This document shows, in pieces, positions 4,007 through 52,290 of a stretch of DNA of 64,000 nucleotides. The stretch covers positions 3,481-67,480 of the forward strand of contig CAVUND010000018.1 of assembly GCA_963742745.1 (NCBI GenBank). Reading direction: 5' to 3'. The stretch comes from an uncultured Actinomycetes bacterium. Its GTDB lineage: Bacteria > Actinomycetota > Thermoleophilia > Solirubrobacterales > Solirubrobacteraceae. Within the stretch, counting starts at the first letter, position 1. The number at the start of each line of letters is the position of its first letter. The notes beneath the pieces are model-generated. The model was given only the letters and a program-made list of their open reading frames with translations. It made no database searches and was not told the origin of the DNA. The translations under genes were made by a program, and so were the position numbers.

Positions 4007-4708
4007 TCATCAACATCCGGTCTCCGGCCGACTTGGGGGTGACGCGCGCGGCGTGGTAGCCGCGTGAGCAGGGCTTTCGCTGTTGAGGATTCCTGCGGAG
4101 GTTGGGCAGAACGCGAAGGACACGCCGCTGTCCTCGATGCAGGCTGCTGGATGCTGAAGCTCTACGGCCCGAAGGAGGATCAGCGCGACGCCGGCGGAGA
4201 GTCCAGGCGCGCCGGCCGATGTTCCCCGTGCCGGCGCGCCCGAACCTCGCACCTCGTTAATCGGCTGGAAGCATGATCGGGATCACGCCCGGCGGTCTCG
4301 GAGCGAGACAAGCCGCAGCGTCCAGCGCTGCTTTCGGGGGATCGCCGAAGTGCCGGGCGGATCCCAAATCCCGCCTCCAGCGGGCGCTCGCTGACGAACC
4401 TCGCGAGCGGACGACGCAAGGGAACCTCAGCCGGGACACGGGCTTGACTGTCTGTTGGGTGTCAAGCCGGTTGATTACGCGACGAACGCGGACACCCTGA
4501 AGCAAACCTCGAGTCGACGACGATGCCGCGGGCGCCGCGACCGAGGCGTGGTCGCAGGAGGGTGAGTCGCGAGCGCTTCTGGTTTTGCACGGCGGCAGCG
4601 GTGGTCTCTCGCGCGGCCGTCGGTGAACTCTTCGCGAGAACGTGGCTGGGCGGACAGCGAGCGGATCGTCGCGGTGCCGGGCTTGGCGGGCGGGGTCGCG
4701 TTGCGCTG

Positions 4709-5284
4709 TTACGCGGTCAGGCCGGCGTCGCCGGCGACCTCGGCGGCCGCGCGACGTAGAACGCCGCCGCGCACGAGATCGACGCATGAGGCGTCGGCCA
4801 CTGTGTCAAGCGCCAGCCAGCACAGCGCTTCCAAACCGGACGGTGCCAACTCCGGAGCCGTCCGCGCGGCGAACGTCATCGTCACCGTCGTGCCATGCCC
4901 GCCCGGGCTGAGCGTGACGGCAAGCGCCTCGGCGAGCGCGCCCACGATCGCCAGTCCTTGGCCGAGCCCCGGCGAGTCGTCGCGCCATACGATCCCGACG
5001 CCGTCGTCGGTGACCTCGACGACGAGCCGCTCCTCGGCGACGTGGCAGCGCACCCGCACCTGGCCGGGCTCGGGTGCGGCGGCGTAGGCGTGAACGACCG
5101 CGTTGGTAACCGTCTCAGAAACGGCAAGTGCGACGTCGTCCAACAACTCGAAGGGCATCCCCGCCGCTTGGGCGAACGCGGTCACGCGGGTACGCAGCTG
5201 ACGCACCGTGCCCGGCACGGCGGGCAGCGTCCAGCAGGCTTGCTCATCGACCGCTCCGACCATCGCGTACGGGCAGCTTGCCAC
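4709..5284 (-). CDS. RsbW-like anti-sigma factor / serine-protein kinase (HATPase_c_2) with a C-terminal extension
   Basis: Motifs seen: LAVSETVTNAVVHAY ... VRVRCHVAEERLVVEVTDDGVGI ... GLGQGLAIVGALAEAL ... GHGTTVTMTF. The start codon is uncertain. Confidence 0.65.
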   Translation of the reverse strand: MASCPYAMVGAVDEQACWTLPAVPGTVRQLRTRVTAFAQAAGMPFELLDDVALAVSETVTNAVVHAYAAAPEPGQVRVRCHVAEERLVVEVTDDGVGIVWRDDSPGLGQGLAIVGALAEALAVTLSPGGHGTTVTMTFAARTAPELAPSGLEALCWLALDTVADASCVDLVRGGVLRRAAAEVAGDAGLTA

Positions 5285-5574
5285 GGCCGGCGCGTGACGC
5301 GCGCTTCCTCGGGTCAGCCGACGCAGCGGCTGATCGCGCGGCCTGCTGAGCGGCGTCTATCCACGGCGCCCGCGGGCGCCCGTGCGCCAGCCGGCGGTGC
5401 TACTCGCCGCGGGCGTCCTTTGGCAGTGCGGCGCAGACTCCGTGATCCCGGGTCATAGCGGACGGGGTGGCGGCGCCCGCCGCTGAGGCGATGGAGCAGA
5501 GTCGTGTCGCGCTGTGCGCAGCCGCGACCGTGCGCAACGGTCTTACACGCGGCTGGGAGAGCGGGTACCGGCGA

Positions 5575-6844
5575 TCAGCCAGGTTGTCGGCTGATCGCGA
5601 TGACGGCGACGTCGTCGCGTAGCGGCAGTTCGAGGCGCCCGAGGGTGTCGGTGACACGGGCGACGATCTGGTGTGCGGCGGTGTCCGATGCGCTGCAGAT
5701 GACGTCGGCAAGCCACTGCTCGTCAACTCGGGCGCCGCCGAGTTGGATGTCGAGCAGGCCGTCGCTGTAGAGAACGATGGCGTCGTCTCGGTTGCAGTTC
5801 AATCCGGCAGGTCTGAAAGGCGGCGTCGTTGAAGGCGCCGAGCATCGTGCCGCGGGTCTGGACGGGTTCGGCGGTGCCGCCCGCGCGCAGCACAAGCGGT
5901 GGGGGGTGCCCGCCGACCGCAAGGGTGATCGTCATCTCGCTGCCACTGGTGTCGATCTGGCCGAAGACGGCGGTGCACATATCGTCGGCGTCCTGTATGA
6001 GCAGTGCCGCGTTGAGGTCGCGCAGCACGTCAGCGGGGTCTTGATGGTGCATCGCGGCGGCGCGGAGGGTGTAGCGGGCGAGTGAGGTGAGGCTGGCGGC
6101 TTCGGGGCCCTTGCCGCAGACGTCGCCAAGAAAGAATCCCCAACGATCGGTTTGCAGCGCGAAGAGGTCATAGAAGTCGCCGCCGACCTCGGCCTGTGAG
6201 AACGGCTGGTAGTGCACCGCGATCTGCAGACCGGGCACATCGGGCAGAGTCGGCGGAGACAGGCTGCGCTGAAGCGTTCGTGCCAACTGCTCGGCGTGGC
6301 GCTGCTGCTCAAGCGCCTCGTGGCGCGCGTCACGTTCAAGGCGCAGTTCGCGCATCGCGGCGAGACGCAGTTCGAGCTCGTCCATGACGATCGCCGCCAG
6401 ATCGCGCAGCGTCTGCATCTCCGCCTCAGTCACCACACGCGCCTTGCCGTCGATGACGTTCACGGTGCCGAGCCGATGGCCGTCGGACGTCGTGATCGGC
6501 GCCGCCGCGTAGAAGCGCACCCCCATCTCGCCGTGGACGAGCTCGTTGCTCGCGACGCGTGGATCGGTCAGGGCATTGCTGATCACATAGGTGTCGTCTT
6601 GCATGATCGCCGACGCGCATAGGCCGGGCACGCGCGGGATCTGCACGACATCAAGGCCCGCGCAGGCCTTAAACCAGATGCGGTCCTCGTCGACGATCGT
6701 CACGGTCGCGATCGGCACGTCAAAGATCCGGGCCGCCAGCGCGCAGATGCGATCAAACGCACCGTCGGGAGGCGAGTCAAGGATGTCGTAGCGGCGCACC
6801 GCCGCGAGACGGGCGACTTCGGGCAAGGCGAGCGCAGCTTGCAT
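5575..6844 (-). CDS. GAF domain plus PP2C/SpoIIE serine phosphatase, with an apparent one-base frameshift near 5788-5800
   Basis: GAF region: RRYDILDSPPDGAFDRICALAARIFDVPIATVTIVDEDRIWFKA. PP2C region: EVGGDFYDLF ... FLGDVCGKGPEAASLTSLARYTLR. The track splits the gene. 5723-6844 ends in an Arg-rich tail, while 5575-5922 carries the expected continuation RDDAIVLYSDGLLD ... DDVAVIAISRQP. Total length is 1270 nt, which is 3n+1. Confidence 0.75.
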
Positions 6845-6946
6845 CAGATCAGATCACGCTACCGCAAGAGGTTGCGCAAACCGCCCCTCAGTTAATGAAC
6901 GTCCCCCCGCGCGACTTCCGGCCGCCGGCACAGCGGACGGTTTCCG

Positions 6947-7560
6947 GTGAACGATCCGGACCGCGAACAGCGTCTTCTCGTGCGCAGTGGCCGCCAGCGG
7001 GTAGCGAGCTCGGCCGAACGCGTCGATACGCACTCTCCTGGGTCCCAGCGCGTAGCGTCCGCGATCAGCCACGCGCGCGTGAAGACCGACAAGATCGACG
7101 CCAGGGTCCTTGCTGATCTGCTGGCCGCCGACCTGATCCCCAACGTGTGGATCGGCGACGACCGCACGCGCATGCTGCGTCGACTCGTGTCACGCCGGCG
7201 CGGGCTGGTCAAGCGGCGCACGCAGGTCAAGAACGAGATCTCGGCGGTGATGCATCGCAACCTCAAAGACGCCACGGCTTTATCTCTGTCGCCGAAGCCG
7301 CGCGCGGGCCTTCTGCGTGCCTCTCGCTTGAAGTGACCGCCCAAAGCGCGTGACGGCGCAGCGATAGACGCCGCGTGGCGGCTTCCGCTTTCCTGGAAGC
7401 CAGCTGCTCGGCGCACTCGAGCGGGCTCCAGCAGCCGGTCGACGACCGGTGACCGAACGTCGTCCACGCTCGCAAGTCCCACGCGGGAGCGTGTCGTCCC
7501 GATAGGCCCGTCCGAAAGGGAATCCCGCAAGGGCACGTCATCCGGCGCAATCCGGCATTG
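6947..7560 (+). mobile_element. Second, unrelated IS110-family transposase remnant, degraded
   Basis: Translation is ARVKTDKIDARVLADLLAADLIPNVWIGDDRTRMLRRLVSRRRGLVKRRTQVKNEISAVMHRNL. No intact N-terminal domain is present. The downstream part is only faintly recognisable across frames and runs up to the thrB stop. Confidence 0.6.
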
Positions 7561-7610
7561 CGCGCCGCGTCAAGTTGCGCGCTGATGGCGTCGAGCGGGA
7601 GAGGGCCGGC

Positions 7611-8468
7611 CTACAGCTCGCGCACGTCGGCGCCCTGCGGCTCGAACGGCGCGCGCAGCACGTCGGCCCAGCCCTCGGCCTCGCCGCGCAGGCGCCCGAC
7701 GACGGCGCCGGTCGCGTCGGCCTGCGTCCAGAACAGCACGGTCGGACCGGCGCCGGAGATCGTCGCCCCGATCGCCCCGAACTCGCGCGCGCGCTTGAGC
7801 AGTGCCATCGACTTGGGAAAGAGGTGCGCGCGGTAGGGCTGATGCAGCCGGTCATCCAGCCCGCGGCCGATGAGGCTGAAGTCGGCGGTCGCGAGGCCGA
7901 GCGTGAGCACCGAGGCGCGGGCGACGTTGGCGACGGCGTCGGCCATCGGCACCTGCTCGGGTAGCGCCTTGCGCGCCACCGCCGTGCGCACCGCCGCGCG
8001 CGGCACGACGATCACCGCCTCCAACCCGTCGGGCGGCTCGAAGCGCGCGACCTCGTGGCCGGTGACGATCACGAAGCCGCCCAGCAGTGCCGCCGCGGCG
8101 TTGTCGGGGTGACCCTCCAGCTCGGCGACGTGGCCGAGCAGGTCCTCCTGCAGCTCGAACATGTGCGAGGCGGCCAACACGCCGGCCGTGTACGCCGCGG
8201 CGCTCGAGCCCAGGCCGCCCGACAGGGGCACGTCGGAGCGGATGCGGAAGGTGAAGCGGTCGGGCGGGTGTAGCCGCGCGAAGCCGCGCACGCAGAGGTT
8301 GCGCCGGTCGCGCGCGATGTCGAGCTTCGTGTCCACGCCGAAACGGCCGGTCTCGACGACCTCGAGCTCGACGTGCAGCGCCAGCGCGGCCGCAAACGCG
8401 TCGAAGCCGGGACCGAGGTTCGCCGACGACGCCGGCACCCGGACGAGCCGGCGGCGCTTGACGGTCAC
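7611..8468 (-). CDS. thrB: Homoserine kinase
   Basis: GTG at 8468 is in a GTGA overlap with the thrC stop. Motifs: [21 protein letters not shown] ... [17 protein letters not shown] ... [13 protein letters not shown] ... [12 protein letters not shown]. The 443-aa track ORF is 5'-overextended. Confidence 0.9.
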
Positions 8469-9463
8469 CCGAGCACGGCCTCCTCGACGGCGGCGAGCGT
8501 CGGCTCGCACGGGATCACGCCGCCGGCCTGGTTGAGCGCCGTCTCGGGGTCCTTCAGCCCGTGGCCGGTGAGCACGCAGGCCACGCGCGCGCAGCCGTCG
8601 GCGCCGTAGCGCAGCAGCCCGGCGACCGACGCCGCGCTGGCCGGCTCGCAGAAGACGCCCTCGCGCTTGGCGAGCAGGTTGTAGGCGCCGAGGATCTCCG
8701 CGTCGGAGACCGCCCGCACCATGCCGCGCGAGGCGGTCATCGCCTCCATCGCCTCCTCCCAGCGCGCCGGGTTGCCGATCCGGATGGCGCTGGCGATCGT
8801 TTCCGGGCTGTCGACGCGTTTGCCGAGCACGAGCGGCGCGGCGCCCTCGGCCTGGAAGCCGAACAGCCGCGGCGTGACACCGTCCTCGACGAACCCCTTG
8901 TGGTAGGCGGTGATGTTGCCGGCGTTGCCGACCGGGATGCACAGCGCGTCGAGTCCACCAAGCTGCTCGACGATCTCGAAGGACGCCGTCTTCTGACCCT
9001 CCAGCCGGTACTGGTTGACGGAGTTGACGAGCGCGATCGGCTGGCGCTCGGTGAGGGCGCGCACGAGCGTCAGCGCCTGGTCGAAGTTGCCGCGCAGGGC
9101 GATCACGCGCGCGCCGTGCATGAGCGCCTGGGCGAGCTTGCCCTGGGCGATCTTGCCCTCGGGCACGATCACCGCGCAGGTCAGGCCGGCGCGGGCGGCG
9201 TAGGCGGCGGCGCTCGCGGCGGTGTTGCCGGTCGAGGCGCAGATCACGGCCTTGGCGCCCTCGCGCACCGCGGCGCTGACGGCGCAGGTCATCCCGCGGT
9301 CCTTGAAGGAGCCCGTCGGGTTCAGGCCCTCGAGCTTCAGCCAGACCTCGGCCTCGACGAGCTCGGAGATGTGCGGCGCGTGGACGAGCGGCGTCGTGCC
9401 CTCGCCGAGCGAGACGACGGGATCCTCGGCGGCGAAGGGCAGGCGCTCGCGGTAGCGCTCCAT
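8465..9463 (-). CDS. thrC: Threonine synthase
   Basis: Motifs: [10 protein letters not shown] ... [11 protein letters not shown] ... [15 protein letters not shown] (PLP lysine) ... [18 protein letters not shown] at 9463 has AGGA 3 nt upstream. An alternative GTG lies at 9475. Confidence 0.92.
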
Positions 9464-9488
9464 CAGTCCTGACACGACGGAGACCCTA

Positions 9489-9523
9489 CTCGTGGGCGCG
9501 GGCTCGTTGCCCGCGCCGACGAG
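9489..9523 (-). terminator. GC-rich hairpin between the lipoprotein gene and thrC (candidate U-tract-less terminator or insulator)
   Basis: On the minus strand the sequence is CTCGT-C-GGCGCGGGC aacga GCCCGCGCC-C-ACGAG. That gives a 9-bp perfect core plus 5 further bp across a C/C mismatch, with no U run following. Confidence 0.35.
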
Positions 9524-9542
9524 GGGCCCGTCGCGCTTCGCG

Positions 9543-10388
9543 TCAGGTGGTGACGAAGAACCCGAGGTTCTGCGCGAATCCGCAGCCCAGCGCCTTGGCC
9601 TTGGCGACGATGAGGTTGTTGGCGGTCATCGCATCCTTGATCTCCTGCGCGCTGCCGGCGGCGTCGAGCACGTCGCCGTTGTCGTTGAGCTGGCGGTTGA
9701 GCGCGCTGCAGCGCTTCTCCTTGATGAACGAGCGGCTCTCGGGCGGCGCGCTCGGGCTCTCCTTGACGCCCACGAGCCCCTGTTCCTCGGCGGTCAGCGG
9801 CGGGCTCGAGACGCCGGTCGTCGTCGCCTTGGACTTGCCGCCCGCCTCGTCGGAAGTCTGGATGCCCTTCAGCTCGAGCGTGTCGCTGACGACCCAGCCA
9901 CGCGTGACGCCCTTGACCCGCTCGCGGAAGTAGCCACCGACCTTCGTGGGTTCGAGCGCGAAATCGTCGCTGACGTCGCCGCTCTTGACGCTGGCGCTGG
10001 TCGGCGCGTCGCCCGACAGCGTCAGGTCGACCGTGCCGTCGCCCTTGACGGCCTTCAGCGTGGCGCTGTCGGCGCCGTCCTCGATCGTGCCCGAGAACGC
10101 CCGGCCCAGCGTCCTTCCGTCGCAGAGGTACGCCACGACGTCGCCATCGCCGGCGACCGTCACCGCGAGTCCGTAGTCCTTGCCTGCCTCGGTGTCGACG
10201 AAGCGCGCGAGATGCGCCGGGTACTCCTCGCCGAGCGTCGGGATCTGCGCGAGCAGGGCGCTGCCGGAGGCAGCCGCGGCGACCGGGGTGGGATTGTCCT
10301 CGCCGCCGCAGGCGGCCAGGCCGGTGCCCAGCGCAAGCGCGGCGATGACGACCGCGCGCGCGGGCCGGTGGATGACTGGGATGAGCAT
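9543..10388 (-). CDS. Lipoprotein of unknown family (paralog 1)
   Basis: ATG at 10388 is preceded by TAGGAGAACCC, so the SD overlaps the GMC stop. Signal with lipobox: [27 protein letters not shown]. About 65 percent identical by eye to the product of 14963-15805 over the first 210 or so residues. Confidence 0.75.
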
Positions 10389-10396
10389 GGGTTCTC

Positions 10397-11938
10397 CTAT
10401 GGGGTTGGGACAGGGACGACGGGGGTGACGCCTGAGCGCCCGGCCGCGGCGGCGCCGGCCAGAAGCTGCGCTGCGCGCTCGGCGACGAGGTGGACGGCGC
10501 ACTGGGGGTGCGCGCGTGGCAGCGTCGGCAGCACCGACGCGTCGACGACGCGCAGCCCGGCGAGGCCGTGGACGCGCAGCGCGGGGTCGACGACGGCAAG
10601 CGCGTCGGCGCCCATCCGGCAGGTGCCGACCGGGTGGTAGAGCGTCTGCGCGACCTGTCGCAACGCGGCGCCGATCTCCGCGTCGGTCTGCGCGCCGGCC
10701 GTCGGGCCCAGCTCGGCGACGTCGCCGAACGCCAGCAGCGCCGGATGGGCGGCGATCCTGCGGGCCAGCCCCAGCCCGTGGGCGAGAACGCGCACGTCGG
10801 CCGGGTCGGTGAGGTAGCCGGGACGGATCGCCGGCTCGACGTCGGCCTGCGGGGCGACGAGCGCGACCTGGCCGCGGCTACCCGGCGCCAGCGCGATGAG
10901 CCCGATGCTGAAGCCGTGCCGCGCCGGCGGCTCGCGCCCCTCGGCGGTCCAGGCGACCGGCGCGAACAACAGCTCGAGGTCCGGGCCGTCGAGCGCGCGG
11001 TGTGTGCGCTCGAACGCGACGGCCTCGGCGACGTTGGAGGTGAGCATCCCGCGGCGGGCGAGCACGAAGCGCGCCACCTCGCGCGGTGACTGCGCCGCCA
11101 TGAGCGACACGGGCGCGCGGCAGCCGAAGACGATCGGGCAGAGCGGATGGTCGACGAGGCCCTGACCGACGCCGGGCAGCGCATGGCGGACGCGCACGCC
11201 GTGGGCGCGGAGGTGCTCGGCGGGGCCGATCCCGCTGCGCTGCAGCAGGTGCGGCGTACCGATCGCCCCCGCGCTCACCACAACCTCGCGGCGCGCGCGC
11301 ACCTCGACGCGACGGCCGCCGTGGCGGTAGACGAGGCCGCCGACGCGCCGCTCGCCGGACCAGTGCAGGTCGAGGACGAGCGCGTCGCTGCGCACGACGA
11401 GGTTCGCGCGGCGCCGGGCGGGACGCAGGTAGGCATCGGCGGCGCTGAAGCGGCGCCCGCCGCGCTGGGTGACGTGCGCGAGGCCGGCCTCGGGCATCGC
11501 GCGCAGGAACGCCCGCGTCATCGGGTTGGGGTCACGCAACGGCGCGATCGCCAGCGTCGACTCGACGCGCGCGAGCAGCGGCGCCAGCGCGTCGGCGCCC
11601 CACTCCGGGCCCGCCTCGTCGGCCCACGCGGCGAAGTCCGACGGGTGCGGCCGCGTGTGGACCATCGCGTTCATCGAGGTGCAGCCGCCGAGCATCCGCC
11701 CGCGGGGAAAGAAGACGCGCCGGCCGCCGAGCCCTGCCTGCGGCGCCGTCTCGTAGGCCCAGTCGCGCGACGTGCCAAACAGCTTCGGGAACGCCGCGGG
11801 CAGGCGAATTTCGGGCCGGCGGTCGTGCGGGCCGGCCTCGAGCAGCAGCACCCGCACGGCCGGGTCCTCGCTCAGCCGGGCGGCCAGCGTGCAGCCGGCG
11901 GCGCCCGCGCCGACGATGATGAAGTCGAACTCGTCCAT
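10397..11938 (-). CDS. GMC-family FAD oxidoreductase (choline-dehydrogenase-like)
   Basis: ATG at 11938. Motifs: MDEFDFIIVGAGAAGCTLAARLSED (FAD GxGxxG) ... GRMLGGCTSMNAM ... VVVSAGAIGTPHLLQRSGIG ... LYHPVGTCRMG. The 713-aa track ORF is overextended. Confidence 0.88.
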   Translation of the reverse strand: MDEFDFIIVGAGAAGCTLAARLSEDPAVRVLLLEAGPHDRRPEIRLPAAFPKLFGTSRDWAYETAPQAGLGGRRVFFPRGRMLGGCTSMNAMVHTRPHPSDFAAWADEAGPEWGADALAPLLARVESTLAIAPLRDPNPMTRAFLRAMPEAGLAHVTQRGGRRFSAADAYLRPARRRANLVVRSDALVLDLHWSGERRVGGLVYRHGGRRVEVRARREVVVSAGAIGTPHLLQRSGIGPAEHLRAHGVRVRHALPGVGQGLVDHPLCPIVFGCRAPVSLMAAQSPREVARFVLARRGMLTSNVAEAVAFERTHRALDGPDLELLFAPVAWTAEGREPPARHGFSIGLIALAPGSRGQVALVAPQADVEPAIRPGYLTDPADVRVLAHGLGLARRIAAHPALLAFGDVAELGPTAGAQTDAEIGAALRQVAQTLYHPVGTCRMGADALAVVDPALRVHGLAGLRVVDASVLPTLPRAHPQCAVHLVAERAAQLLAGAAAAGRSGVTPVVPVPTP

Positions 11939-39213: not shown

Positions 39214-40263
39214 ATGAGCACCTACGACCTCGTCGCCGATCTGCCGTTTCACATCGACGGGTACGAGCTCGAGGGGCTCGTGCAGAACGTCTCCAGCGAC
39301 TTCGAGCGCAAGACGACGATCATCCACCTGCACGGTGGCGGCGAGGAGGGGCTCGGCGAGGACGTCGTCTACGACCCCGTCGACCACGAGATCGCCCAGA
39401 AGGCCGGCCCCACGCTGGCGCTCGCGGGCGACTGGACGATCCGCTCGTTCTCCGACCATCTCGCCACGCTCGAGCTGTTTGCCGAGAAGCCCCAGCGCGA
39501 GGTCTCGCCGCTGTATCGCACGTGGGCCTACGAGTCGGCCGCGCTGGACCTCGCCCTGCGCCAGGCCGGCCGCTCCCTGCACGAGGTCCTCGGCCGCGAC
39601 CCCCGGCCGCTGACGTTCGTCGTCTCCCTGCGCCTCGGGGAGCCACCGTCGCTGGAGCCCGTCACGAGCCGGCTGGAGCACTATCCCACGCTGCGCTTCA
39701 AGCTCGACCCGACGCCCTCCTGGGACGCCGAGCTGATCGCCGGCCTCATCGCGACGGGCACGGTGGACTCCGTCGACTTCAAGGGCCTCTACGAGGGCAC
39801 CCCCGTCGACAACCCCGCCGACCCCGACTTCTACCTGCGGATCGTCGAGGCGTTCCCCGACGCGTGGATCGAGGATCCGAAGCTCACCGATGAGATCGAT
39901 GCGGCGCTGAAGCCCCATCGCGACCGCATCACCTGGGACGCGAACATCCATTCGATCAGCGACATCGAGGGGCTCCCGTTCGCGCCGCGGATGGTCAACC
40001 TCAAGCCCTCGCGCCTGGGCGGCATCAAGGCGCTCTTCGACGCCTACGACTACACCGCCGAGCGCGGGATCGGCGCCTACGGCGGCGGCCAGTTCGAGCT
40101 CGGCGTCGGTCGTGAGCACATCCAGTACCTGGCGTCGATCTTCCATCCCGACACGCCGAACGACACCTCGCCGGCGGGCTTTCACGTCATGGAGCCGCCG
40201 CCCGGCCTACCGTCCAGCCCGATCGATCCGATGCCCTCGGCGACCGGCTTTCGCTGGGGCTGA
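39214..40263 (+). CDS. Conserved hypothetical protein, possibly enolase-superfamily-like barrel
   Basis: Clean 349-aa ORF with high GC3. Motifs: TLRFKLDPTPSWD ... VDFKGLYEGT ... AWIEDP ... MVNLKPSRLGG. The functional call is weak. Confidence 0.6.
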   Translation: MSTYDLVADLPFHIDGYELEGLVQNVSSDFERKTTIIHLHGGGEEGLGEDVVYDPVDHEIAQKAGPTLALAGDWTIRSFSDHLATLELFAEKPQREVSPLYRTWAYESAALDLALRQAGRSLHEVLGRDPRPLTFVVSLRLGEPPSLEPVTSRLEHYPTLRFKLDPTPSWDAELIAGLIATGTVDSVDFKGLYEGTPVDNPADPDFYLRIVEAFPDAWIEDPKLTDEIDAALKPHRDRITWDANIHSISDIEGLPFAPRMVNLKPSRLGGIKALFDAYDYTAERGIGAYGGGQFELGVGREHIQYLASIFHPDTPNDTSPAGFHVMEPPPGLPSSPIDPMPSATGFRWG

Positions 40264-40702: not shown

Positions 40703-41098
40703 TCAGGGCGCGGGCGCCACCGGCAGGCCGGCGTCGCGCCAGGCCTGAAAGCCGCCGACGAGATCGGTCGCGGCGGCGAAGCCGAGCTGCTGCAGCGTGG
40801 CCGCGGCGAGGCTCGACTGGTAGCCCCCGTCGCACATCAGGATGATGCGGCGCTCGAGGCCGCCGACGCGCTCGTCGTACGCCTCGCAGCTGGGGTCGCA
40901 GCGCCACTCGAGCACGTTGCGGGCAAACCAGATCGTGCCCACCACGATCCCGTCGGCGGCCCGTTGGGACTCCGACCGGATGTCGATCATGAGCGCGCCG
41001 TCGCCGATCGCGTCGCGCGCCTCCTGCGGCCCGACGCGGACGAGCCTCTCGCGCGCCTGCGCGAGCAGCTCGTCGATCGTCGTGCGATTCACCGTCAT
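40703..41098 (-). CDS. Single-domain rhodanese (sulfur/selenium transferase-like)
   Basis: ATG at 41098 is preceded by GGAGGTTGGGAGG. Active-site loop ILMCDGGYQSS. Other motifs: IDIRSESQ and GGFQAWRDAGLPV. Confidence 0.8.
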   Translation of the reverse strand: MTVNRTTIDELLAQARERLVRVGPQEARDAIGDGALMIDIRSESQRAADGIVVGTIWFARNVLEWRCDPSCEAYDERVGGLERRIILMCDGGYQSSLAAATLQQLGFAAATDLVGGFQAWRDAGLPVAPAP

Positions 41099-41151
41099 CC
41101 TCCCAACCTCCAAACGTCGCCGGCCGGCCGGCGGAGGCTGAACCCGGCGGG

Positions 41152-41610
41152 CTACGGCTTCTGTTCGCGCATGCCCTTCACCGCCGCCGAGATGACCTCG
41201 GCGTCGAGCACGTCGGCCATGACGCCGATCTGTTCCTCCCAGACGTCGTCGTCGATCTGGCTGCGGAACTCTTCCTCGAGTACGTGATACACGGAGAGAC
41301 CCAACTGGGTCTCGGCCAATGCACCTGCATAGGTCGGATCGCCGAGCACAAGGGTCTCGGCGGCGATCTCCGCGCTCTCGTCGTCCGGAGCTCCGAGGAT
41401 GACGAGCAATTGCTCGGCCCCGTGCTCGTCGGCAAGGCGCTTGATCACTTCCTGGCTATTGAGGTCCATGGCCCCTGAGGCCGTTCAGACGAAGCACTCC
41501 GTCGACGTGTACTCGACCTTGCCGCCGGCGCTCTTCACGCAGGCCGCGATCGCGGGGCCCGCGACGCCGTCTCGCTCGCCGAGCACGATCACCATCTTGT
41601 TGTCGAACAT
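41152..41610 (-). CDS. grdA: Glycine/sarcosine/betaine reductase complex selenoprotein A, with in-frame TGA (Sec) at 41485-41487
   Basis: Translation from ATG 41610: MFDNKMVIVLGERDGVAGPAIAACVKSAGGKVEYTSTECFV-TGA-TASGAMDLNSQEVIKRLADEHGAEQLLVILGAPD ... GDPTYAGALAETQLGLSVYHVLE. This carries the canonical CxxU motif and GrdA-like sequence on both sides of the TGA. The track shows only the C-terminal 105 aa. Confidence 0.9.
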
Positions 41611-41616
41611 CGGGTG

Positions 41617-41958
41617 CTAACTCACCTCCTCTGTGTTCTCGTCGAGGCTCTTGTCAAGCCAGTCATTGAGCTGCGCGGGGCTGATCGTCGACTCCGACAA
41701 CCGCGCCACCTCTTCGCCGTCGCGCAGCAGCAGGAACGTGGGAAGCCCGTGGACCTTGAGGCGGATGCACACCCGCCGCGCCTTCGGCGCCTCGAGCATG
41801 ACGACGTTGATGTCGTCGCGTGCCTCGGCCAGCTTCTCGACGTGCGGCTTGAGCGCCAGGCACGGCCGGCAATCCGGTCCCCATACGTCGACGAGCGTGG
41901 TGCCGCTCTCGACGAGCTCGTCGAAGTTCTCGCGTGTCGCCTCGGCTACAGCACCCAT
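41617..41958 (-). CDS. Thioredoxin-fold protein with an atypical DCRPC redox motif
   Basis: Translation: MGAVAEATRENFDELVESGTTLVDVWGPDCRPCLALKPHVEKLA ... GLPTFLLLRDGEEV. It lies 5 nt after grdC and 6 nt before grdA. Confidence 0.85.
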   Translation of the reverse strand: MGAVAEATRENFDELVESGTTLVDVWGPDCRPCLALKPHVEKLAEARDDINVVMLEAPKARRVCIRLKVHGLPTFLLLRDGEEVARLSESTISPAQLNDWLDKSLDENTEEVS

Positions 41959-41963
41959 TTCGC

Positions 41964-43397
41964 TCACCCTTCCGCTTCGTTGGACTCGAGCAGCACGCTC
42001 ATGCCGTCGGACTGCTCGGACATGCGTCCCAGGAACAGACTGCCCTTTGCGATCAGCTGTACCCGATGTGCGCTCCCATCCATCAACCGGGCACGTGCAT
42101 GCGGGACGTAGCATAGGGCCGAGGCGATGTGACCCTGGGTCGGGGCGTAGCCGGGCATGCCCCGCTGCGCGACGAAGTCGCCCATGTCCTCGCGGCCGAT
42201 CTCGCCGCGGCGCAGCGCCAGAGCGGCGAGCGTCTTGTAGTTGCGCGCCGGGACGTCGCCCGAGCCCTGCGGCTCGGTGATCTCGGGGTTGTGCAGCTCG
42301 GTGGCGTAGTCGTCGACGTCGAGCGATCCCAGGCCGAGGCGCTCGAGGGGCGAGAACGCCAGGGCCTCCATGATCTTCGGGTTCGAGGACCCGGCGGCGA
42401 CGGTGTGGCGGCCGACGGAGTCCAGCCGCACGCGCGGCGAGCGTCCGTCGTCGGCCTCGACGAGCACGGCGCTCGCGCCGAGGACGTCCTCCAGCACCGG
42501 CAGATCGTGCTTGAGGTGCCCTTGGAACTTCATGCCCACCTTCGGAAGCGAGCCGCCCGCGACGACGACGACGCGCCCGAACACCCCGGAAGCGACGAGG
42601 CTGCTGGCGATGACCAGCGCGGGGATCGGGGCGGCACAGAAGTTCTTGACGTCGCAGCCCGAGGCGTTGCTGCAGCCCGCCGCCGCCGCCACGGACTTTG
42701 CGAGGTTGCCGCCGCCGCGCTGGTAGCGGTCGCCGATCGCCTCCTCGCCGGCGCCGATGACGTAGTCGATCGAGTCGGGGTCGATGTCGTTGTCGGCGAG
42801 CAGGCGCAGGAGGCCCAGCGTGGCGCTCGCCTTTCCGCAGAGGTTCTCGAAGAACACGTCGGCGGTCAGGGCGGCATCGCTCTCGTGGGCGCGCCGCACG
42901 GCCGCGGCGAGCTGATCGGCGCCGAGGTGCAGCTTCAGCGCGCCCGGCTCGGCCGCCACCGCTTCTGCGTCGCCGGCCGCGGCCGCCACCTTCTCGAGGT
43001 CGAGACGCTCGGCCAGCGGATGGCTCTGCAGCTTCTCCGCGATCGCGCCGGCGTGTGCCGCGTCGAGCCGCACGAGGCCGAAGTCGTCGACCGCCGCCAG
43101 CAGGCCGAGGAACTCGTCCTCGGGCATGAGCTCGCCGACGCCCGCGAAGCGGCCCTCGCCGTTGGCGGCCGCGCCGACCCACGGTCGCTCCGGCAGGTCC
43201 CGCGGATGGATCGCCCCGAGGTAGGCCTGATGCGGCGCGTAGGCGACCGCCTGCTCGAACGTGCGCAGCGAGCTCAGGAACTGCGCCTCGACGTCCGGGT
43301 TCTTGTGCAGCTCGCGCGACGGCTTGGAGCCGTGGCGGCACAGGCCGGGCACATGGACGAGCGCCGCGCTCGTGGCGCTGATGACAGGGACGGGCAT
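41964..43397 (-). CDS. grdC: Glycine reductase complex protein C, beta subunit-like (GrdC)
   Basis: Translation from ATG 43397: MPVPVISATSAALVHVPGLCRHGSKPS ... LRTFEQAVAYAPHQAYLG ... FAGVGELMPEDEFLGLL ... QRGGGNLAKSVAAAAGCSNASGCDVKNFCAAP ... VVVAGGSLPKVGM ... LEDVLGASAVLVE ... GMPGYAPTQGHI ... KGSLFLGRMS. This is colinear with clostridial GrdC as I recall it. Confidence 0.85.
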   Translation of the reverse strand: MPVPVISATSAALVHVPGLCRHGSKPSRELHKNPDVEAQFLSSLRTFEQAVAYAPHQAYLGAIHPRDLPERPWVGAAANGEGRFAGVGELMPEDEFLGLLAAVDDFGLVRLDAAHAGAIAEKLQSHPLAERLDLEKVAAAAGDAEAVAAEPGALKLHLGADQLAAAVRRAHESDAALTADVFFENLCGKASATLGLLRLLADNDIDPDSIDYVIGAGEEAIGDRYQRGGGNLAKSVAAAAGCSNASGCDVKNFCAAPIPALVIASSLVASGVFGRVVVVAGGSLPKVGMKFQGHLKHDLPVLEDVLGASAVLVEADDGRSPRVRLDSVGRHTVAAGSSNPKIMEALAFSPLERLGLGSLDVDDYATELHNPEITEPQGSGDVPARNYKTLAALALRRGEIGREDMGDFVAQRGMPGYAPTQGHIASALCYVPHARARLMDGSAHRVQLIAKGSLFLGRMSEQSDGMSVLLESNEAEG

Positions 43398-43404
43398 GCG
43401 CCCT

Positions 43405-44703
43405 CTATTGAACCGGATCGCCGTCGAAGACCGTCGGCTCGCTGACCTGCGTGCCGACGGCGACGAGCGCCCGTTCAAGCAGTTGCCGGCGCCAGGCGTG
43501 CTCCGCCGCGGGCCCGAGCTCGGGATCTCCCGCCGGGAACGGGATGCCGCGCGTGGGCACGATGCGCGGCGCGCCGACGCGCTTGGCGATCGAGACGAGG
43601 TTGCACAGCAGCGCGGTGGGGATCCCGGCGCGCTCCAGTTCCTTCGTGAGCGTTGACCCGCAACGCGTGCCGGTTCCTCAGGTGGCGGTGAGAATGACCG
43701 CCTGGATGTTCGCCTGGCGCAGCTCGGCCGCCCATTCCATCCCGAAGCGGCGCGCGTCGGCGACCGTCGTGCCGTTGCCGGTCGTCCCCAGGTACTCGCC
43801 GTGCAGGCGTCCGATCGCGCCCTCGCGCTCCATCTCGCGGGCGACGTCAAGCGGCAGGATGCGGTTGGGATCGGCGTTGGCCCAGACGGTGGAGAACCCG
43901 CCGTGCACGGACTCGAACTCGCCCTCTTCGACGGAGTCCAGGCCGTCGAGCGAGTGGCGCACCCACTTCGTGGCGCGCGCGGACTCCAGGCGGTCGGGGT
44001 TGCCGGCGGGCACGAAGCCGCCCTCGGTGACGAGCGCGAACAGCGCGTCGGTGACGTCGGCGACGGGCGCGGCCGGCGTGACGCTGTCGAAGTCGGGGAG
44101 CGGGATCTCGGTGGCGTCCTTGTCGCCGGCCAGGCGGGTCAGCACGAGCGCGACGGCGCGCTCGGCCGCGCTGTGTTCGGCCATGCGGTTGGTGCGGGCG
44201 ACCGGGCCGATGCGCCCGTCCTGCGCGGTGAGCTCGTCGCCTGCGGCGATGATTCGTGCTGCCGCGGCGAAGCGCTCGAGCGACTCCTTCATCTTTCGCG
44301 CCGTCTGGCCGCTCTCGACGACGGCCGTGCCGGCGGCCTCGCCCAGGCCGGGATTCTCGGGGTGCATCGACGCCAGCGCGGGCAACCCCGCCTCGCTGGC
44401 CGCCGCCGCGATCCGCGCGCACGCCATCCCGTAGCGCCCGCTCGTGAACGAGGGGCCGGCGATGATCATCTCGGCGCCGCGCTCCCTGGCCTGCGTGACG
44501 AGCTCGGCGGCGAAGTCGGCGTGCGAGGCCGCGTAGTCGTCGCCGCAGATGGCGGTGGCGACGATCTCGTGCTCGTCGCCGAGCAGCGAAGCCAGCTTGC
44601 GGCCGGGCCCGACGGCCCCGTCGCGCAGCTCGGGACCGGTGCCCGCGGAGTCCTCGCCGCCCATGCCGGCGAAGAACTGGTTGACGTAGTGGACGATCTT
44701 CAT
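43405..44703 (-). CDS. grdB: Selenoprotein B (GrdB/GrdF/GrdH family) with in-frame TGA (Sec) at 43678-43680
   Basis: Translation: [34 protein letters not shown] ... IIAGPSFTSGRYGMAC ... LVTEGGFVPAGNPDRLES ... VHGGFS ... LPLDVAREMEREGAIG ... GTTGNGTTVA ... AVILTAT-TGA-GTGTRCGSTLTKELERAGIPTALLCNLVSIAKRVGAPRIVP ... and stop TAG at 43405-43407. The track ORF ends at the TGA. Confidence 0.9.
43650..43666 (-). other. Candidate SECIS stem-loop of the grdB-like gene
   Basis: On the mRNA, UGA is followed by 11 nt, then GCGUUG-CGGGU-CAACGC (6-bp stem, 5-nt loop containing GGU). Confidence 0.4.
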
Positions 44704-46019
44704 GACGCGATCTCGGCCTCGGCACAGGTGAGTCTGCCCCAGCCCAGCGTGCTCTGCGCGCAGTAGACGGCGGCCACCGGCAGCTCGACCTCGTTGGTGG
44801 ACGCCTGGTCGAGCAGGGCGATCTTGTCACGGCCGAGCGCGCGGTCCACGGCGGGCAGCGTCATCCGCTCGTCGTAGTTGCCCGTGCTGACGAGCGCGGT
44901 CGCCTTCGTCGGCGGGACCACGAGCGGCGGCCCGGTCCCGTCGCGCCCCGCCATCTCGGCGAGGATGCCGATCGCCGCGATCCCCTCCTCCTCGAGGCGG
45001 TCCATCTTCAGCGAGACGTCGGCGTCGGCGTTGCCGCCGCCCTCCTTCGTCGCGATCGCGGCATCGAGGTGCAGTTGCTTGCACAGCCGCGCGGCGTGGG
45101 CGGAGACGAGCTCCTTGTCGGCCTGGTTGACGGGCTCGGGGCAGAGGATGAGCGCCGCCAGCTCGAGCTCGTCCGAGCGGGCGCGCAGGGCCGCGACCAC
45201 CGGATGGGTCTGGTGCAGATAGGTGGGGTTCTTCAGCGCGGGATGGCCGAACTGGCCGCTGACCACCGCGCCGTCGTCGAGCTCGCTGGGCGAGATGACG
45301 GTCGGCAGGCCACCCGACAGGCTGCGCCCGTAGACGAAGACGTCCTTGAACTTGCCCTGCGTCTGCAGGTTGAGGATGACGCCGACCCGCGGCTTGCCGT
45401 TGGCGGGTGCTTCTCCGGGCTCGGAGAGCTCTTCGACCGCGTCGGGCTCGGCGTCGAGCGCGGCCTCGGCGAGGTGGGCGGCGACCGTGACGAGCCCGCG
45501 CCGCAGCGCCGCGTCGACGTCGCCCCAGTCCGCGTCCTCGGCGGGCGTCCACTCGACGACGAGGTTATGCGTCGCGGCGAGCGGCGACAGCGGCGCCGCC
45601 GGCCCCGACATGTCGATGACCGCCTCCTGCGCGCGGGGCAGGTAGCCGGCGGCCAGCACGGCGGCGCCGCGCAGGACGTGCGTCTCACCGCGCCCCACGG
45701 GCATCGCCGGGCCGAGCAGCCCGGGGAACACGCCGCCCCCGCCGGGGCCTTTCGAGCAGGGCTGGACGGCGTCCAGCACGCCGACGATCCGCACGGAGTC
45801 GCCGGGCGAGGCGACGCCCAGCCGGACCTCGGCGAACGCGGGGTCGCGCAGGAGGTCGAGCACGGTCTCCTCGCCGACGGTGAGGCGCCCGTCGGAATAG
45901 CCCGTGCTCTCGCCGAGATCGAGCTCGCGCACCTCGTGGATCACCCGGGTCAGCCCGGTCTGCGCGTTCACGTTCTGAATGCTGCCAGATGTCGGCCAGG
46001 CGGGGTGATCCCCGGCCAC
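44700..46019 (-). CDS. GrdE/GrdI-family substrate-binding component B subunit (no proprotein-cleavage cysteine seen)
   Basis: Motifs: [18 protein letters not shown] ... VIDMSGPAA ... [22 protein letters not shown] ... [13 protein letters not shown] ... [16 protein letters not shown] overlap with the grdB start. The start codon is uncertain, with in-frame GTG alternatives downstream of 46019. Confidence 0.8.
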
Positions 46020-46122: not shown

Positions 46123-48231
<2,109 letters not shown>

Positions 48232-48319: not shown

Positions 48320-49353
48320 GTGAGCGATTCGCAGGCAGCGGCACCCGTCCCGCTGACGTCCCTCGCCCACGGCGCGGGCTGCGGCTGCAAGCTGCCGGCG
48401 GCGTCCCTGCTGCCGATCGTCCGTGGCCTGCCGGCCGTCGCCGACCCGCGGCTGCTCGTGGGCTCCAACACCGCCGACGACGCCGCGGTGTTCAAGTTGA
48501 CCGACGAGATCGCGCTCGTGATGACGATCGACTTCTTCACGCCGATCGTCGACGACCCCTACGACTTCGGGCGGATCGCGGCGGCGAACGCGCTGTCGGA
48601 CGTCTACGCGATGGGCGGGGTGCCGTTGGCGGCGATGAACGTCGTGGCGTTTCCGCTCGAGCGGCTCGGCGGCGACGTGCTGCGCGAGATCCTGCGCGGT
48701 GGCGCGGACATCGCCACCGAGGCCGGCATCGCCGTCGTCGGCGGGCACTCGATCGACGATGCCGAGCCGAAGTACGGGATGTCGGTCACCGGCACGGTGC
48801 ATCCCGACGAGCTCATCTCCAACGCCGGCGCGTGCGTGGGTGACGTGCTGGTCCTCACCAAGCCGCTCGGCGTCGGCGCGATCACGACGTCTCGCAAGCG
48901 CGGCAACCGCGACGACGAGCTCTTGGCGCGCGGCGTGGCGACGATGACCGCGCTCAACGACACGGCCTCCGCCGCGGCGCGCGCGGCCGGCGCCCACGCG
49001 ATGACCGACGTCACCGGCTTCGGGCTGCTCGGCCACCTGCACTCGCTCGGGCGCGCGAGCGCCGTCGCCGCGGAGATCGACGCGGCGTCCGTGCCGGCGA
49101 TCGACGGCGTGCTCGCGCTGCTCGAGGGCGACGACGCCGTCTCGGGCGGCAGCCGCCGCAACCGCGAGTACGCCGAGACGTTCACGGTCTTCGCGACGCC
49201 GATGTCGCGGAGGCGCGGCGGCGGCTGGTCTGCGACGCCACGACGTCCGGCGGGCTGCTCGTCGCGGTCGCGCCCGAAGCCGCCGCGTCGCTGCCGGGCC
49301 CGATCATCGGCGCGATCGTCGCCGGCGAGCCCGGCGCCATCGCGGTGCGATGA
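48320..49353 (+). CDS. selD: Selenide, water dikinase (Cys form), with an apparent one-base deletion near 49190-49198
   Basis: Motifs: LTSLAHGAGCGCKLP ... DDAAVF ... TIDFFTPIVDDPYDFGRIAAANALSDVYAMGG ... VVGGHSIDD ... MTDVTGFGLLGH ... GGSRRNREYAETF. The sequence then continues in the next frame as DADVAEARRRLVCDATTSGGLLVAVAPEAA ... IAVR, with a stop at 49351-49353. Length is 1034 nt, which is 3n-1. Confidence 0.88.
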
Positions 49354-49379: not shown

Positions 49380-49470
49380 GGAGCGGCCCGGGCCCGGTGG
49401 CCCATCCGGTCTTCAAAACCGGCGGGGCGCGGCACACCGCGCTGGAAGGTTCGACTCCTTCGCCGTTCCG
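49380..49470 (+). tRNA. selC: tRNA-Sec (anticodon TCA)
   Basis: Structure read from the sequence: 8-bp acceptor GGAGCGGC/GCCGTTCC with one G-U pair; D stem GGGCC/GGCCC with a 4-nt loop; anticodon stem CCGGT/ACCGG with loop CT-TCA-AA; long variable arm GCGCGG-CACA-CCGCGC; T arm GAAGG-TTCGACT-CCTTC; discriminator G. No CCA is encoded. Confidence 0.93.
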
Positions 49471-49471
49471 T

Positions 49472-50779
49472 ATGAGCGACCACGACCGGCTGCGCGCGCT
49501 TCCCTCCGTCGACAAGCTGGCGACGATGGTCGCCCGCGCCGAGCTGCAGGCGCGGCGGGCGGATCTGCTCGACGGCGGCGCCGCGGCGGCCGACGACGAA
49601 CAGGTCGACCTCGTCGCCCGGGCACGGGCCCGCCTCAGACCGCACCTGCGGCGCGTGCTCAACGCGACGGGCGTCGTCGTCCACACGAACCTCGGCCGCG
49701 CCCCGCTCGCCGTCGAGGCGCAGGCCGCGGTGGCGGCGGTCGCCGGCGGCTACAGCAACCTCGAGCTCGACCTCGCCAGCGGCGAGCGCGGCTCGCGTCA
49801 TGCCCACGTCGAGGAGCTCCTGAAAGAGCTCACCGGCGCGGAGGCGGCGATGGCGGTCAACAACTGCGCCGCGGCGGTGCTGCTGGCCTGCGCCGCGCTC
49901 GCCGCAGGCCGCGACACCGTCGTCTCGCGCGGGCAGCTGATCGAGATCGGCGGCGGCTTCCGCATCCCCGAGGTGCTCGCCGCCGCCGGCACGCGGCTCG
50001 TCGAGGTGGGCACGACGAACCGCACCCGCCGCGCCGACTACGAGAGGGCGCTCGCTGCCGGAGGCGAGAGCGTCGGCGCGATCCTGCGGGCACATCCCTC
50101 CAACTTCCGCACGCTGGGCTTCGTCGAGGAGGTCGAGATCGAGGCGCTCTGCGAGCTCGGCGTGCCCATCATCGACGACGTCGGCTCGGGCGTGCTGACC
50201 GAGGACCTCGAGTTGCTCGCCGGCGAGCCGCCGGTGCGCCGGTCGGTCCGCGCCGGCGCGGCGCTCACGGCGTTCTCGGGCGACAAGCTGCTCGGCGGCC
50301 CGCAGGCGGGGCTGCTCGTCGGCACGCGCGCCGCGATCGAGGCCTGCCGCCGCCATCCGCTCGCGCGGGCCGTGCGGATCGACAAGCTCTCGCTCGCCGC
50401 GCTCGAGGCGACGCTCGCCCTGCATCGCGACCCGGCGGCGGCGCGGCGCGCGTTGCCGGTGCTCGCGATGCTCGAGGCCGACGCCGGGACGCTGACCCGG
50501 CGCGCGGAGGAGCTGGCCACCGCGACCGGCGGCACGCTCGTCGCTTCGACCGCGCGCGTCGGCGGCGGCGCGCTGCCGCTGCTCGAGCTGCCGGGGCCGG
50601 CGGTCGCGATCGACCCCGGCCCCGCCGGCGCCGACGCGCTCGCCGCAGCCCTGCGGGCCGGCGATCCCGCCGTCGTGGGCCGCATTCACGACGGCCGCCT
50701 CCTGCTCGACCCGCGCACGCTGACCGACAACGAGGCGCGTGAGGTGGCGCGCGCGGTGCGCGCCGTCCTCGCGCCGTGA
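49472..50779 (+). CDS. selA: L-seryl-tRNA(Sec) selenium transferase
   Basis: Motifs: [17 protein letters not shown] ... [20 protein letters not shown] ... [16 protein letters not shown] ... [10 protein letters not shown] ... [19 protein letters not shown] ... [14 protein letters not shown] (PLP lysine) ... [14 protein letters not shown]. Confidence 0.92.
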
Positions 50780-52290
50780 GCGAGGAGCACGCGGCGGCCC
50801 TGACGCTCGGGACCGCCGGCCACATCGACCACGGCAAGACCGCGCTCGTGCGCGCGCTCACCGGCGTGGACACCGATCGCCTGCCCCAGGAGCAGGCGCG
50901 CGGTATGTCGATCGAGCTCGGGTTCGCGCCGTTGCTGCTGCCCGGGGGCCGGCGCGTCTCGGTCGTCGACGTGCCGGGCCACGAGCGCTTCGTACGCACG
51001 ATGGTGGCCGGGGCGACCGGGATCGACTTCCACCTCATGGTCGTCGCCGCCGACGACGGCGTGATGCCGCAGACCCTCGAGCACGCGGAGGTGCTCGCGG
51101 CGCTGGGGATCGATCAGGGCGTCGTCGCGATCACGAAGTGCGACCGCGCGTCCCCCGAGCGCGCCGCCGCGGAGGCCGCCGAGCTGTTTGCCGATGCCGA
51201 GATCGTGGCGTGCTCGGCGCGCACCGGCCACGGCGTGGCGGACGTCGCGGCGGCGCTGGAGCGCGCCGCGGCGCGGGTCACGTCGCAGGCCGAGCGCCAC
51301 CGCGACGGCCCGGCCGTGCTGCACATCGACCGCGCGTTCACGATCCACGGGGCCGGCACGGTCGTCACCGGGACGCTGTGGTCCGGCAGCCTGGCGGTGG
51401 GCGACACGCCGACCCTGCTGCCCGCGCAGCGGCCCGTCCGCGTCCGGTCGCTGCAGGTGCACGACGAGCCGGCCGAGCGGGCGCACGCGGGCCAGCGCGT
51501 GGCCGTCAACCTCGCCGGGATCGCGCGGCGCGACGTCGCTCGCGGCGACGCGCTCGCCGACCCGATGGCGGGGGTCGTGCCGACGCAGGTCGTCGACGCG
51601 GTGCTCGACCTGCGCGGCGAGCTGCGCGCCCGGCGGGTCATGGCCCACCACGGCACGCGAGCGGTGCCGGCGCGGCTGGTGGCGCTCGGCGACGCCCTGT
51701 GGCAGCTGCGCCTGGAGGCGCCGCTGCTCGCCGCCGCGGGCGATCGGCTCGTCGTGCGCTCGGTCGCGCCGCCCGACACGCTCGGCGGCGGCACTGTGAT
51801 CGATCCGGGCGCCCGCCGCCACGGTCGCCGCCCGGACGTGGTGGCGCGCCTGCAGCGGCTGCGGCGCGGTGAACCGGAGCCGGAGCCCGCTGCCGACGCT
51901 GCCCGCGCGGCGCCGGCGGCGGCCCCGCCGGGCCCCCCGCTGGAACCCGAGGCGATCGAGCTCGCCGGGCGGCTGCTCGCGGCCGGCCACGAGCCGCCCT
52001 CGCGCGCGGACCTGGGCGCCGCGGCAGCGCACCTGCCCAAGCTCGTCCAGGCGGGCCTCGCCGTGCGCATCGGCCGCGACCTCTACGCGCACCGCGACGC
52101 CATCGCGGCCGTCAAGGATCGCGTCGGCGCGATCATCGCCGACGAGGACGCGATCACGCTCGCGCGGCTGCGCGACGAGCTCGGCACATCGCGCAAGTAC
52201 GCCGAGGCGCTGCTCGAGCACCTCGACCAGGCACGCTTCACCAAGCGCCTGCCCGACGACCGGCGAGTGCTGCGCCGCCGCGCGGGCTGA
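50776..52290 (+). CDS. selB: Selenocysteine-specific translation elongation factor
   Basis: GTG is in a GTGA overlap with the selA stop. Motifs: [14 protein letters not shown] ... DVPGHERF ... AITKCD. C-terminal winged-helix region: [25 protein letters not shown]. Confidence 0.92.

Follow-up and report, generated by a model that had tools for sequence, protein, structure and literature searches.

Textbooks describe Grd-type reductases in strict anaerobes that ferment amino acids, and to our knowledge sequences have been linked to only four substrate specificities, namely those for glycine, sarcosine, betaine and fluoroacetate. The locus described here, from an uncultured bacterium of the family Solirubrobacteraceae (Actinomycetota), raises the question of what such an enzyme would do once its GrdE-like subunit has lost the cysteine (Cys) at which GrdE is cleaved to form a pyruvoyl group. 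We analyzed a 64,000-nt stretch of this genome (assembly GCA_963742745.1, contig CAVUND010000018.1, positions 3,481–67,480; hereafter, the window), in which a gene at 44700–46019 on the minus strand encodes a GrdE-like subunit of component B, also called protein B. We find that the loss of the Cys is shared across the clade to which this protein belongs, and we consider it probable that the protein is the non-selenium protein B subunit of a Grd-type selenoenzyme that is pyruvoyl-free and lets its leaving group depart without a Schiff base.

A phenylalanine in the cleavage-cysteine column

The GrdE-like gene encodes a 439-aa protein from a GTG start and matches PF09338 (Gly_reductase) over its full length, scoring 323 bits against a cut-off of 22.2 (residues 29–432). 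Its start is uncertain: homologues are 418–427 aa long, a second GTG at 45974 would give a 424-aa product, and GGAGGA precedes the GTG equivalent to 45974 in several relatives. Apart from this GGAGGA, which resembles a ribosome-binding site and stands before the alternative start, the upstream regions did not align across loci. The calculated mass of the unprocessed chain is 45.4 kDa, or 43.9 kDa from the GTG at 45974.

We aligned the protein, using MAFFT, with labelled references taken from annotated PLSDB records. GrdE came from the record of Acetoanaerobium noterae, and GrdG from the two grdG-grdF pairs of Peptoclostridium acidaminophilum DSM 3953, the organism where these enzymes were defined. 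The PF09338 gene of the Enterococcus gilvus pCR1A cluster (trxB-trx-grdA-grdC-grdD-component B-grdH-BCCT) was taken to be GrdI because the adjacent GrdH, which also served as a control, passes the NCBIfam betaine model (798 against a cut-off of 775). At the site, GrdE reads DGAILSGN-C-VSACDKNPTY, both GrdG copies read GAITSGN-C-VAPCDKVTTF, and GrdI reads GAMISGS-F-MPCSSKWSTY. Eighteen residues of the window protein align here, and Phe257 (codon ttc, 45249–45251), which lies in the 22-residue site region (residues 248–269; 45213–45278, minus strand), shares a column with the cleavage Cys of GrdE and GrdG. No Cys occurs within 15 residues on either side of it. The initial annotation of this DNA had placed Phe where the Cys is expected, had named the SGNC context of GrdE, and had seen no Cys nearby, and the alignment bears it out on all three points; the Phe257 column matches the labelled references, and we therefore rejected a mis-registered alignment as the source of the missing Cys. 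In the GrdE of C. difficile, the pyruvoyl group is on a residue derived from Cys242, where the pyruvoyl peptide begins (PMC9908766), and in the related PrdA the variants C421A and C421S underwent no processing (PMC11229817).

Conservation across an actinobacterial clade

Scanning one genome for each GTDB species with the motifs FKD[VT][FY]VYG and TKEGGGNA, we obtained 329 genomes with a relative, from which related loci were retrieved using a six-sequence clade alignment; locus comparisons are based on the best 80 of these 329 genomes. All of these best 80 are metagenome-assembled genomes (MAGs) of Actinomycetota, with 58–90% protein identity, from Solirubrobacterales, Thermoleophilaceae, Gaiellales and Acidimicrobiales. 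The nearest relatives of the window, which has a G+C content of 66–79%, are soil Solirubrobacteraceae MAGs at 83–91% protein identity. The cleavage column holds Phe or Tyr in 82 of 82 related loci and Cys in none. The site motif across these loci is G[QA][FY]GHP, with Gln in all but two and GHP invariant, and the hallmark of the clade at the site is G[QN][FY] followed by a 12-residue stretch. The site region lacks Cys in all 82 loci, and no Cys anywhere in the GrdE-like protein is invariant across them. Because every locus combines Phe or Tyr with a Cys-free site region, the loss is evidently fixed in the clade, and the alignments mark it as an old and selected feature. We found no literature on grd genes in Thermoleophilia or Acidimicrobiia.

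Since the Cys needed for cysteinolysis is replaced clade-wide by Phe or Tyr, no pyruvoyl group would be expected at this site. The initial annotation had predicted a non-pyruvoyl component B, and the clade-wide replacement, together with the unprocessed PrdA variants C421A and C421S (PMC11229817), makes an unprocessed, non-pyruvoyl GrdE-like subunit a well-supported prediction, with the protein kept as a single chain of about 44–45 kDa.

The same annotation knew GrdI as the only unprocessed homologue, which turned out to be too narrow, since GrdI and FarE have both been published as unprocessed subunits (PMC10838667) and aromatic residues are frequent at this column in the family. We aligned 122 sequences, the query and those 121 of the 150 best family representatives that were full-length, a sample that is biased to the query. 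In this alignment, the cleavage column is Tyr in 64 sequences, Phe in 16 and Cys in eight, for an aromatic share of about 66%. The SGNC context is present in seven of the eight Cys-containing sequences, and these seven make up one clade. As far as this query-biased sample goes, the pyruvoyl-forming proproteins would be one branch of a far larger family, and their type a minority in its sequence space.

A conserved operon encoding two selenoproteins

The GrdE-like gene heads a conserved operon, the order E-B-C-trx-A being retained in every locus long enough, in both Thermoleophilia and Acidimicrobiia. This arrangement shows the gene as one predicted to be co-transcribed with those for selenoprotein B, GrdC, thioredoxin and selenoprotein A, and apparently translationally coupled with these partners. 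Next to it lies the selenoprotein B homologue (43405–44703, minus strand, 432 aa; PF07355, 383 bits), whose start overlaps the stop codon of the GrdE-like gene (ATGA). It contains an in-frame UGA at 43678–43680 within the motif LTAT-U-GTGTRCG, and 90 more conserved codons lie beyond this UGA. The TGA and its surrounding motif are kept in 71 of 71 loci. The partner motif is UxxGxxC (U-GTG-TRC), in which Gly replaces the first Cys of UxxCxxC.

GrdC, the component C beta subunit (41964–43397, minus strand, 477 aa), scores 564 bits with NF040746, above the cut-off of 450, and matches PF19364 and ACP_syn_III. The thioredoxin (41617–41958, minus strand, 113 aa; PF00085) has the active site WGPDCRPC, and a CxPC motif was present in 61 of the 63 loci scored, the other two having C-R-S-C and C-T-R-C. 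Selenoprotein A, or GrdA (41152–41610, minus strand, 152 aa; PF04723, NF040748), carries UGA at 41485–41487 in the motif ECFV-U-TASG, and its TGA is kept in 65 of 65 loci. Following grdA, trxB was seen in two of the 80 loci only (L059 and L060).

Two of these proteins show clade-specific features of their own. Actinobacterial GrdC retains the universally conserved Cys of NF-C-AAP and lacks three others that all four of the reference GrdC proteins have; in SAL-C-YVP it has acquired a Cys specific to the clade. The operon thioredoxin has WGP[DE]C[RK]PC instead of the usual WCGPC, which we take to be reminiscent of the CxPC thioredoxins in clostridial grd clusters.

Selenocysteine decoding

Both the A and the B subunit genes contain UGA, and the genes for selenocysteine (Sec) decoding that a Grd-type selenoenzyme calls for lie adjacent on the plus strand: selD (48320–49350; AIRS Pfam domain), tRNA-Sec (49380–49470; found by ARAGORN and by Rfam RF01852), selA (about 49472–50779; SelA Pfam domain) and selB (50776–52290; SelB Pfam domain). 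In most loci of at least 80% identity, the operon has the sel genes beside it. On this evidence the system looks functional, and the operon is apparently among the genes that make most use of Sec decoding in these genomes.

A hairpin, GCGUUG-CGGGU-CAACGC, begins 11 nt past the UGA of selenoprotein B (43650–43666, minus strand) and presents CGGGU in its loop. Its bases are near-invariant over about 70 loci, including at synonymous sites, whereas flanking third positions vary; the same region also encodes the amino-acid motif TRCG. The consensus fold has six pairs, with one compensatory change from G-C to U-A in a distant sequence and two single-side G-U changes. When single sequences were folded after both UGA codons, the energy was no better than that of shuffled controls, and the case for the hairpin therefore rests on synonymous-site conservation and the consensus fold. 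On that basis it presumably represents a bacterial SECIS element.

A branch distinct from known Grd enzymes

The window protein shares 32% identity with GrdI, 33% with GrdE and 33–34% with GrdG, whereas those three are 39–63% identical to one another. With the NCBIfam GrdG model (NF040793) it scores 213 against a cut-off of 780, where the true GrdI scores 345, and with the FarE model (NF053623) it scores 126.5 against 675. PrdA (TIGR04480) gives 46.8 bits against a cut-off of 700, over residues 236–352 only. The partner selenoprotein, scored full-length with U changed to C, also stays below the cut-offs of GrdF (NF040794, 437/800), GrdB (TIGR01917, 393/602) and GrdH (NF040795, 388/775), and passes the subfamily model TIGR01918 only.

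We rejected five candidate identities: PrdA, on its sub-threshold score and on the presence of GrdA and GrdC in the operon; FarE, on a score below the NF053623 cut-off; GrdE, on the replacement of the cleavage Cys by Phe257 and on a partner below the GrdB cut-off; GrdG, on scores below NF040793 and, for the partner, NF040794, and on the missing cleavage Cys; and orthology to GrdI, on an identity no closer than that to GrdE or GrdG and on a partner below the GrdH cut-off.

In a neighbor-joining tree of family representatives clustered at 50% identity, built without bootstrap and indicative only, the query joins P0121, P0127 and P0128, and the GHP motif is common to all four. The P0133 clade neighbors this group, and both the SGNC clade and the GrdI-like P0248 and P0259 are distant. 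Beyond GHP after the aromatic residue, the clade is recognizable by TKEGGGNAD where the references have EEG[YF]GNPD, by loss of a C-terminal insertion of about 17 residues, and, in the partner, by T-U-GTGTRCG in contrast to the TST-U-GTCTRCG of GrdF and GrdH. By these comparisons the clade is to be read as a separate deep branch, not orthologous to GrdE, GrdG, GrdI or FarE. Neither single-sequence nor profile searches found a PDB structure of any family member.

Each of the known systems nevertheless shares part of this design. Betaine reductase (GrdI/GrdH), known from Eubacterium/Peptoclostridium acidaminophilum and represented here by the PGAP-annotated example of E. gilvus pCR1A, likewise pairs an unprocessed PF09338 subunit, with Phe for the cleavage Cys, with a Sec-containing PF07355 partner, and works with GrdA, GrdC and thioredoxin. 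It differs in that the window operon has no BCCT transporter, grdD or trxB, in the partner motif (UxxGxxC in the window, UxxCxxC in GrdH), and in the subunit itself, where GHP and KEGGGNAD stand in place of MPC and EEGYGNPD and the C-terminal insertion of about 17 residues is lacking. FarE/FarB, the fluoroacetate reductase of Cloacibacillus porcorum (Synergistota), has an E-type subunit reported to be without processing cysteines, as here, a B-type selenoprotein in which the CxxC region is reported to be altered, much as the window partner deviates, and a non-amine leaving group for which it sets the precedent (PMC10838667). Fluoroacetate reductase comes, however, from a different phylum and habitat, the window partner has lost just one of the two Cys that follow Sec, namely the first, and FarE was compared by model score. 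The glycine and sarcosine enzymes (GrdE/GrdB and GrdG/GrdF) share the two-subunit architecture of protein B, the downstream GrdA and GrdC, and 33–34% full-length identity, but theirs are proproteins cut at SGN|C to give the pyruvoyl group, their partner reads TST-U-GTCTRCG, and their clusters hold grdD and usually grdX and trxB.

The nearest relative outside the clade is the sister clade P0133 (locus L083), at 38% identity. It too has Tyr in the Cys column, a partner with U-GTGTRCG, and no C-terminal insertion, and it differs in its low G+C content and gene order. At 3065–11892, L083 holds a complete cluster consisting of LysR, a DASS symporter, E, B, trxB, trx, grdA, grdC and grdD; the symporter hints at an anionic, non-betaine substrate for the sister clade.

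Neighboring genes

A rhodanese-domain protein (40703–41113, minus strand; PF00581) is encoded directly downstream of grdA. The gene is loosely linked to the operon, with a copy in the flanks of about 10 of the closest loci, either downstream of grdA or upstream beside the sel genes, and it may have a role in handling selenium or sulfur. Divergent from the selenoprotein operon and about 100 bp away lies a gene for an HPII-type large-subunit catalase (46123–48231, plus strand). Its adjacency recurs in a few close relatives only (L031 and L057), and in L043 a catalase gene lies about 2 kb downstream and is not divergent; the catalase is probably an incidental neighbor. A well-supported 349-aa open reading frame (ORF) at 39214–40263 on the plus strand (GC3 0.93) had no Pfam match at E ≤ 1e-4. 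The 819-aa "selD-selA" ORF in the ORF list is a frameshift artefact. Elsewhere, on a soil metagenome contig (L093, 2855–5251), a clade member is fused in-frame to selenoprotein B, with 798 aa to the Sec codon; downstream grdC, trx and grdA are not present there.

A proposed reaction and the points against it

The operon contains canonical GrdA and GrdC, which Prd-type systems do not have, and from the established Grd mechanism this would imply a substrate of the form X-CH2-COO-. With no pyruvoyl group, X would have to leave without imine formation, for which trimethylamine (from betaine) and fluoride (from fluoroacetate) are precedents. In the scheme that we propose, the Sec of the B subunit would attack the alpha-carbon of X-CH2-COO-, and X would depart without Schiff-base activation. 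The resulting carboxymethyl-selenoether would move to Sec42 of GrdA, where the cysteine of the CxxU motif would release the carboxymethyl group as an acetyl thioester on GrdC, and thioredoxin would re-reduce GrdA. The acetyl-phosphate step might then be performed by a gene elsewhere in the genome, or another acetyl acceptor might be used.

Several observations weigh against this scheme. The gene grdD, which normally comes next after grdC, as in the L083 and E. gilvus clusters, was found neither in the 64-kb window nor in the 80 loci with 8-kb flanks, and the pathway as drawn is to that extent incomplete. In the classical enzyme, the thiol at which acetyl phosphate is made reportedly belongs to GrdD (Kohlstock et al., 2001). 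If grdD is also absent from the rest of these genomes, the acetyl-releasing step would differ from the clostridial scheme. Clustering of neighbor genes in the 80 loci returned no conserved transporter, regulator, grdX or maturation gene near the operon, and no Rfam riboswitch or other RNA was detected upstream of it in the window and eight diverse loci. The first Cys of UxxCxxC is thought to protect or assist Sec (PMC10838667), and its loss in the partner means that the mechanism may deviate from the textbook one. Finally, selD in the window has an apparent 1-nt frameshift near 49193: the intact SelD of a relative matches frame 2 to 49216 and frame 1 from 49204, which places an apparent deletion within 49185–49216 (plus strand), where ttcgcgacgcc stands for an expected ttcgGcgac and a G appears to be missing. 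The cause may be a mistake in the assembly or genuine damage to the gene; relatives, L001 among them, have an intact selD.

Alternative explanations

The best placed of the alternatives, though in our view an unlikely one, is that the operon encodes a strict betaine reductase, functionally GrdI/GrdH, converting betaine to trimethylamine and an acetyl unit, for example for osmolyte disposal in soil Actinomycetota. In its favor, soil bacteria commonly use glycine betaine as a compatible solute, and E. gilvus GrdI likewise has Phe in the Cys column (ISGS-F-MPC). Among the classical substrates, betaine is also the one that does without a Schiff base (PMC10838667). The window protein, however, is no closer to GrdI, at 32% identity, than to GrdE or GrdG, and falls far from the GrdI-like P0248 and P0259 in the tree; its partner scores lowest with the GrdH model, which a genuine GrdH passes, and has UxxGxxC, not the UGTCTRC of GrdH. 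In addition, none of the 80 loci has a BCCT/betaine transporter beside the operon, unlike the grdI-grdH-BCCT arrangement of E. gilvus. The quaternary amine named by the initial annotation is therefore a possible substrate to which neither the sequence identity, nor the partner's score, nor the gene neighborhood points.

That annotation's exclusion of glycine is likely to hold, short of proof, and the reservation comes from a published model in which the glycine-binding carbonyl is on GrdB and the pyruvoyl group of GrdE has a maintenance role only (discussed in PMC9908766). The enzyme could still be a glycine or sarcosine reductase of unchanged specificity if it needed no carbonyl or had one at another place; Andreesen's model, for instance, puts it on the B selenoprotein. 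Carbonyl labelling was earlier reported for both GrdE and GrdB, and the pyruvoyl group has been proposed to keep GrdB active, but a GrdB carbonyl was not detectable in C. difficile (PMC9908766). Among the NCBIfam models, each subunit scores best with one for sarcosine reductase (GrdG and GrdF, respectively), yet these scores (213/780 and 437/800) are about half of the cut-offs or less. Every labelled glycine or sarcosine enzyme that we recovered keeps SGN-C, and neither a GrdX/PrdH-type maturation gene nor a glycine riboswitch was found. We regard retained glycine or sarcosine specificity as decidedly unlikely.

Processing at another residue, Ser or Thr, or by an unidentified maturase, could in principle still provide a pyruvoyl group or other carbonyl. 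Ser254 and Thr266 near the site are invariant, and most pyruvoyl enzymes use Ser (PMC11229817). In GrdE and GrdG, however, these two residues are just as invariant although the Cys is present, and they therefore do not stand in for it; the PrdA variant C421S is unprocessed (PMC11229817), and no maturase-like gene is conserved in the operon. Such processing seems highly improbable to us. We give just as little credence to the idea that the operon is a decaying, non-functional remnant in an aerobic lineage, which could appeal to the apparent selD frameshift, the missing grdD and the rarity of selenoproteins in aerobes (PMC13188914), but runs against the conservation of five genes, both UGA codons, the hairpin and the clade motifs across 80 species-level genomes at 58–90% protein identity, against synonymous sites that vary freely, and against the intact selD of the relatives.

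Implications for soil Actinomycetota

We would class the system with the known Grd-type selenoprotein reductases, as a widespread variant found in Actinomycetota, rather than as a new kind. Public databases label clade members "glycine reductase" or "sarcosine reductase", and these annotations are probably wrong. A broader suggestion, which we make tentatively and hold to be possible rather than likely, is that nominally aerobic soil Actinomycetota keep a GrdD-less module of five genes that is pyruvoyl-free, has UxxGxxC, a specificity not described before and an acetyl-releasing end unlike the clostridial GrdC/GrdD. If this is true, the module travels, in the closest group, with its own selD, tRNA-Sec, selA and selB, and, with no transporter linked to it, it might act on a carboxymethyl compound present inside the cell. 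The clade is well defined and occurs in hundreds of soil actinobacterial genomes, in which it appears to be a main reason for keeping Sec decoding. Identification of the substrate would add a reaction to the turnover of carbon and nitrogen (or sulfur/halogen) in soil, would explain the selenium requirement of these bacteria, and would also test whether GrdD is dispensable.

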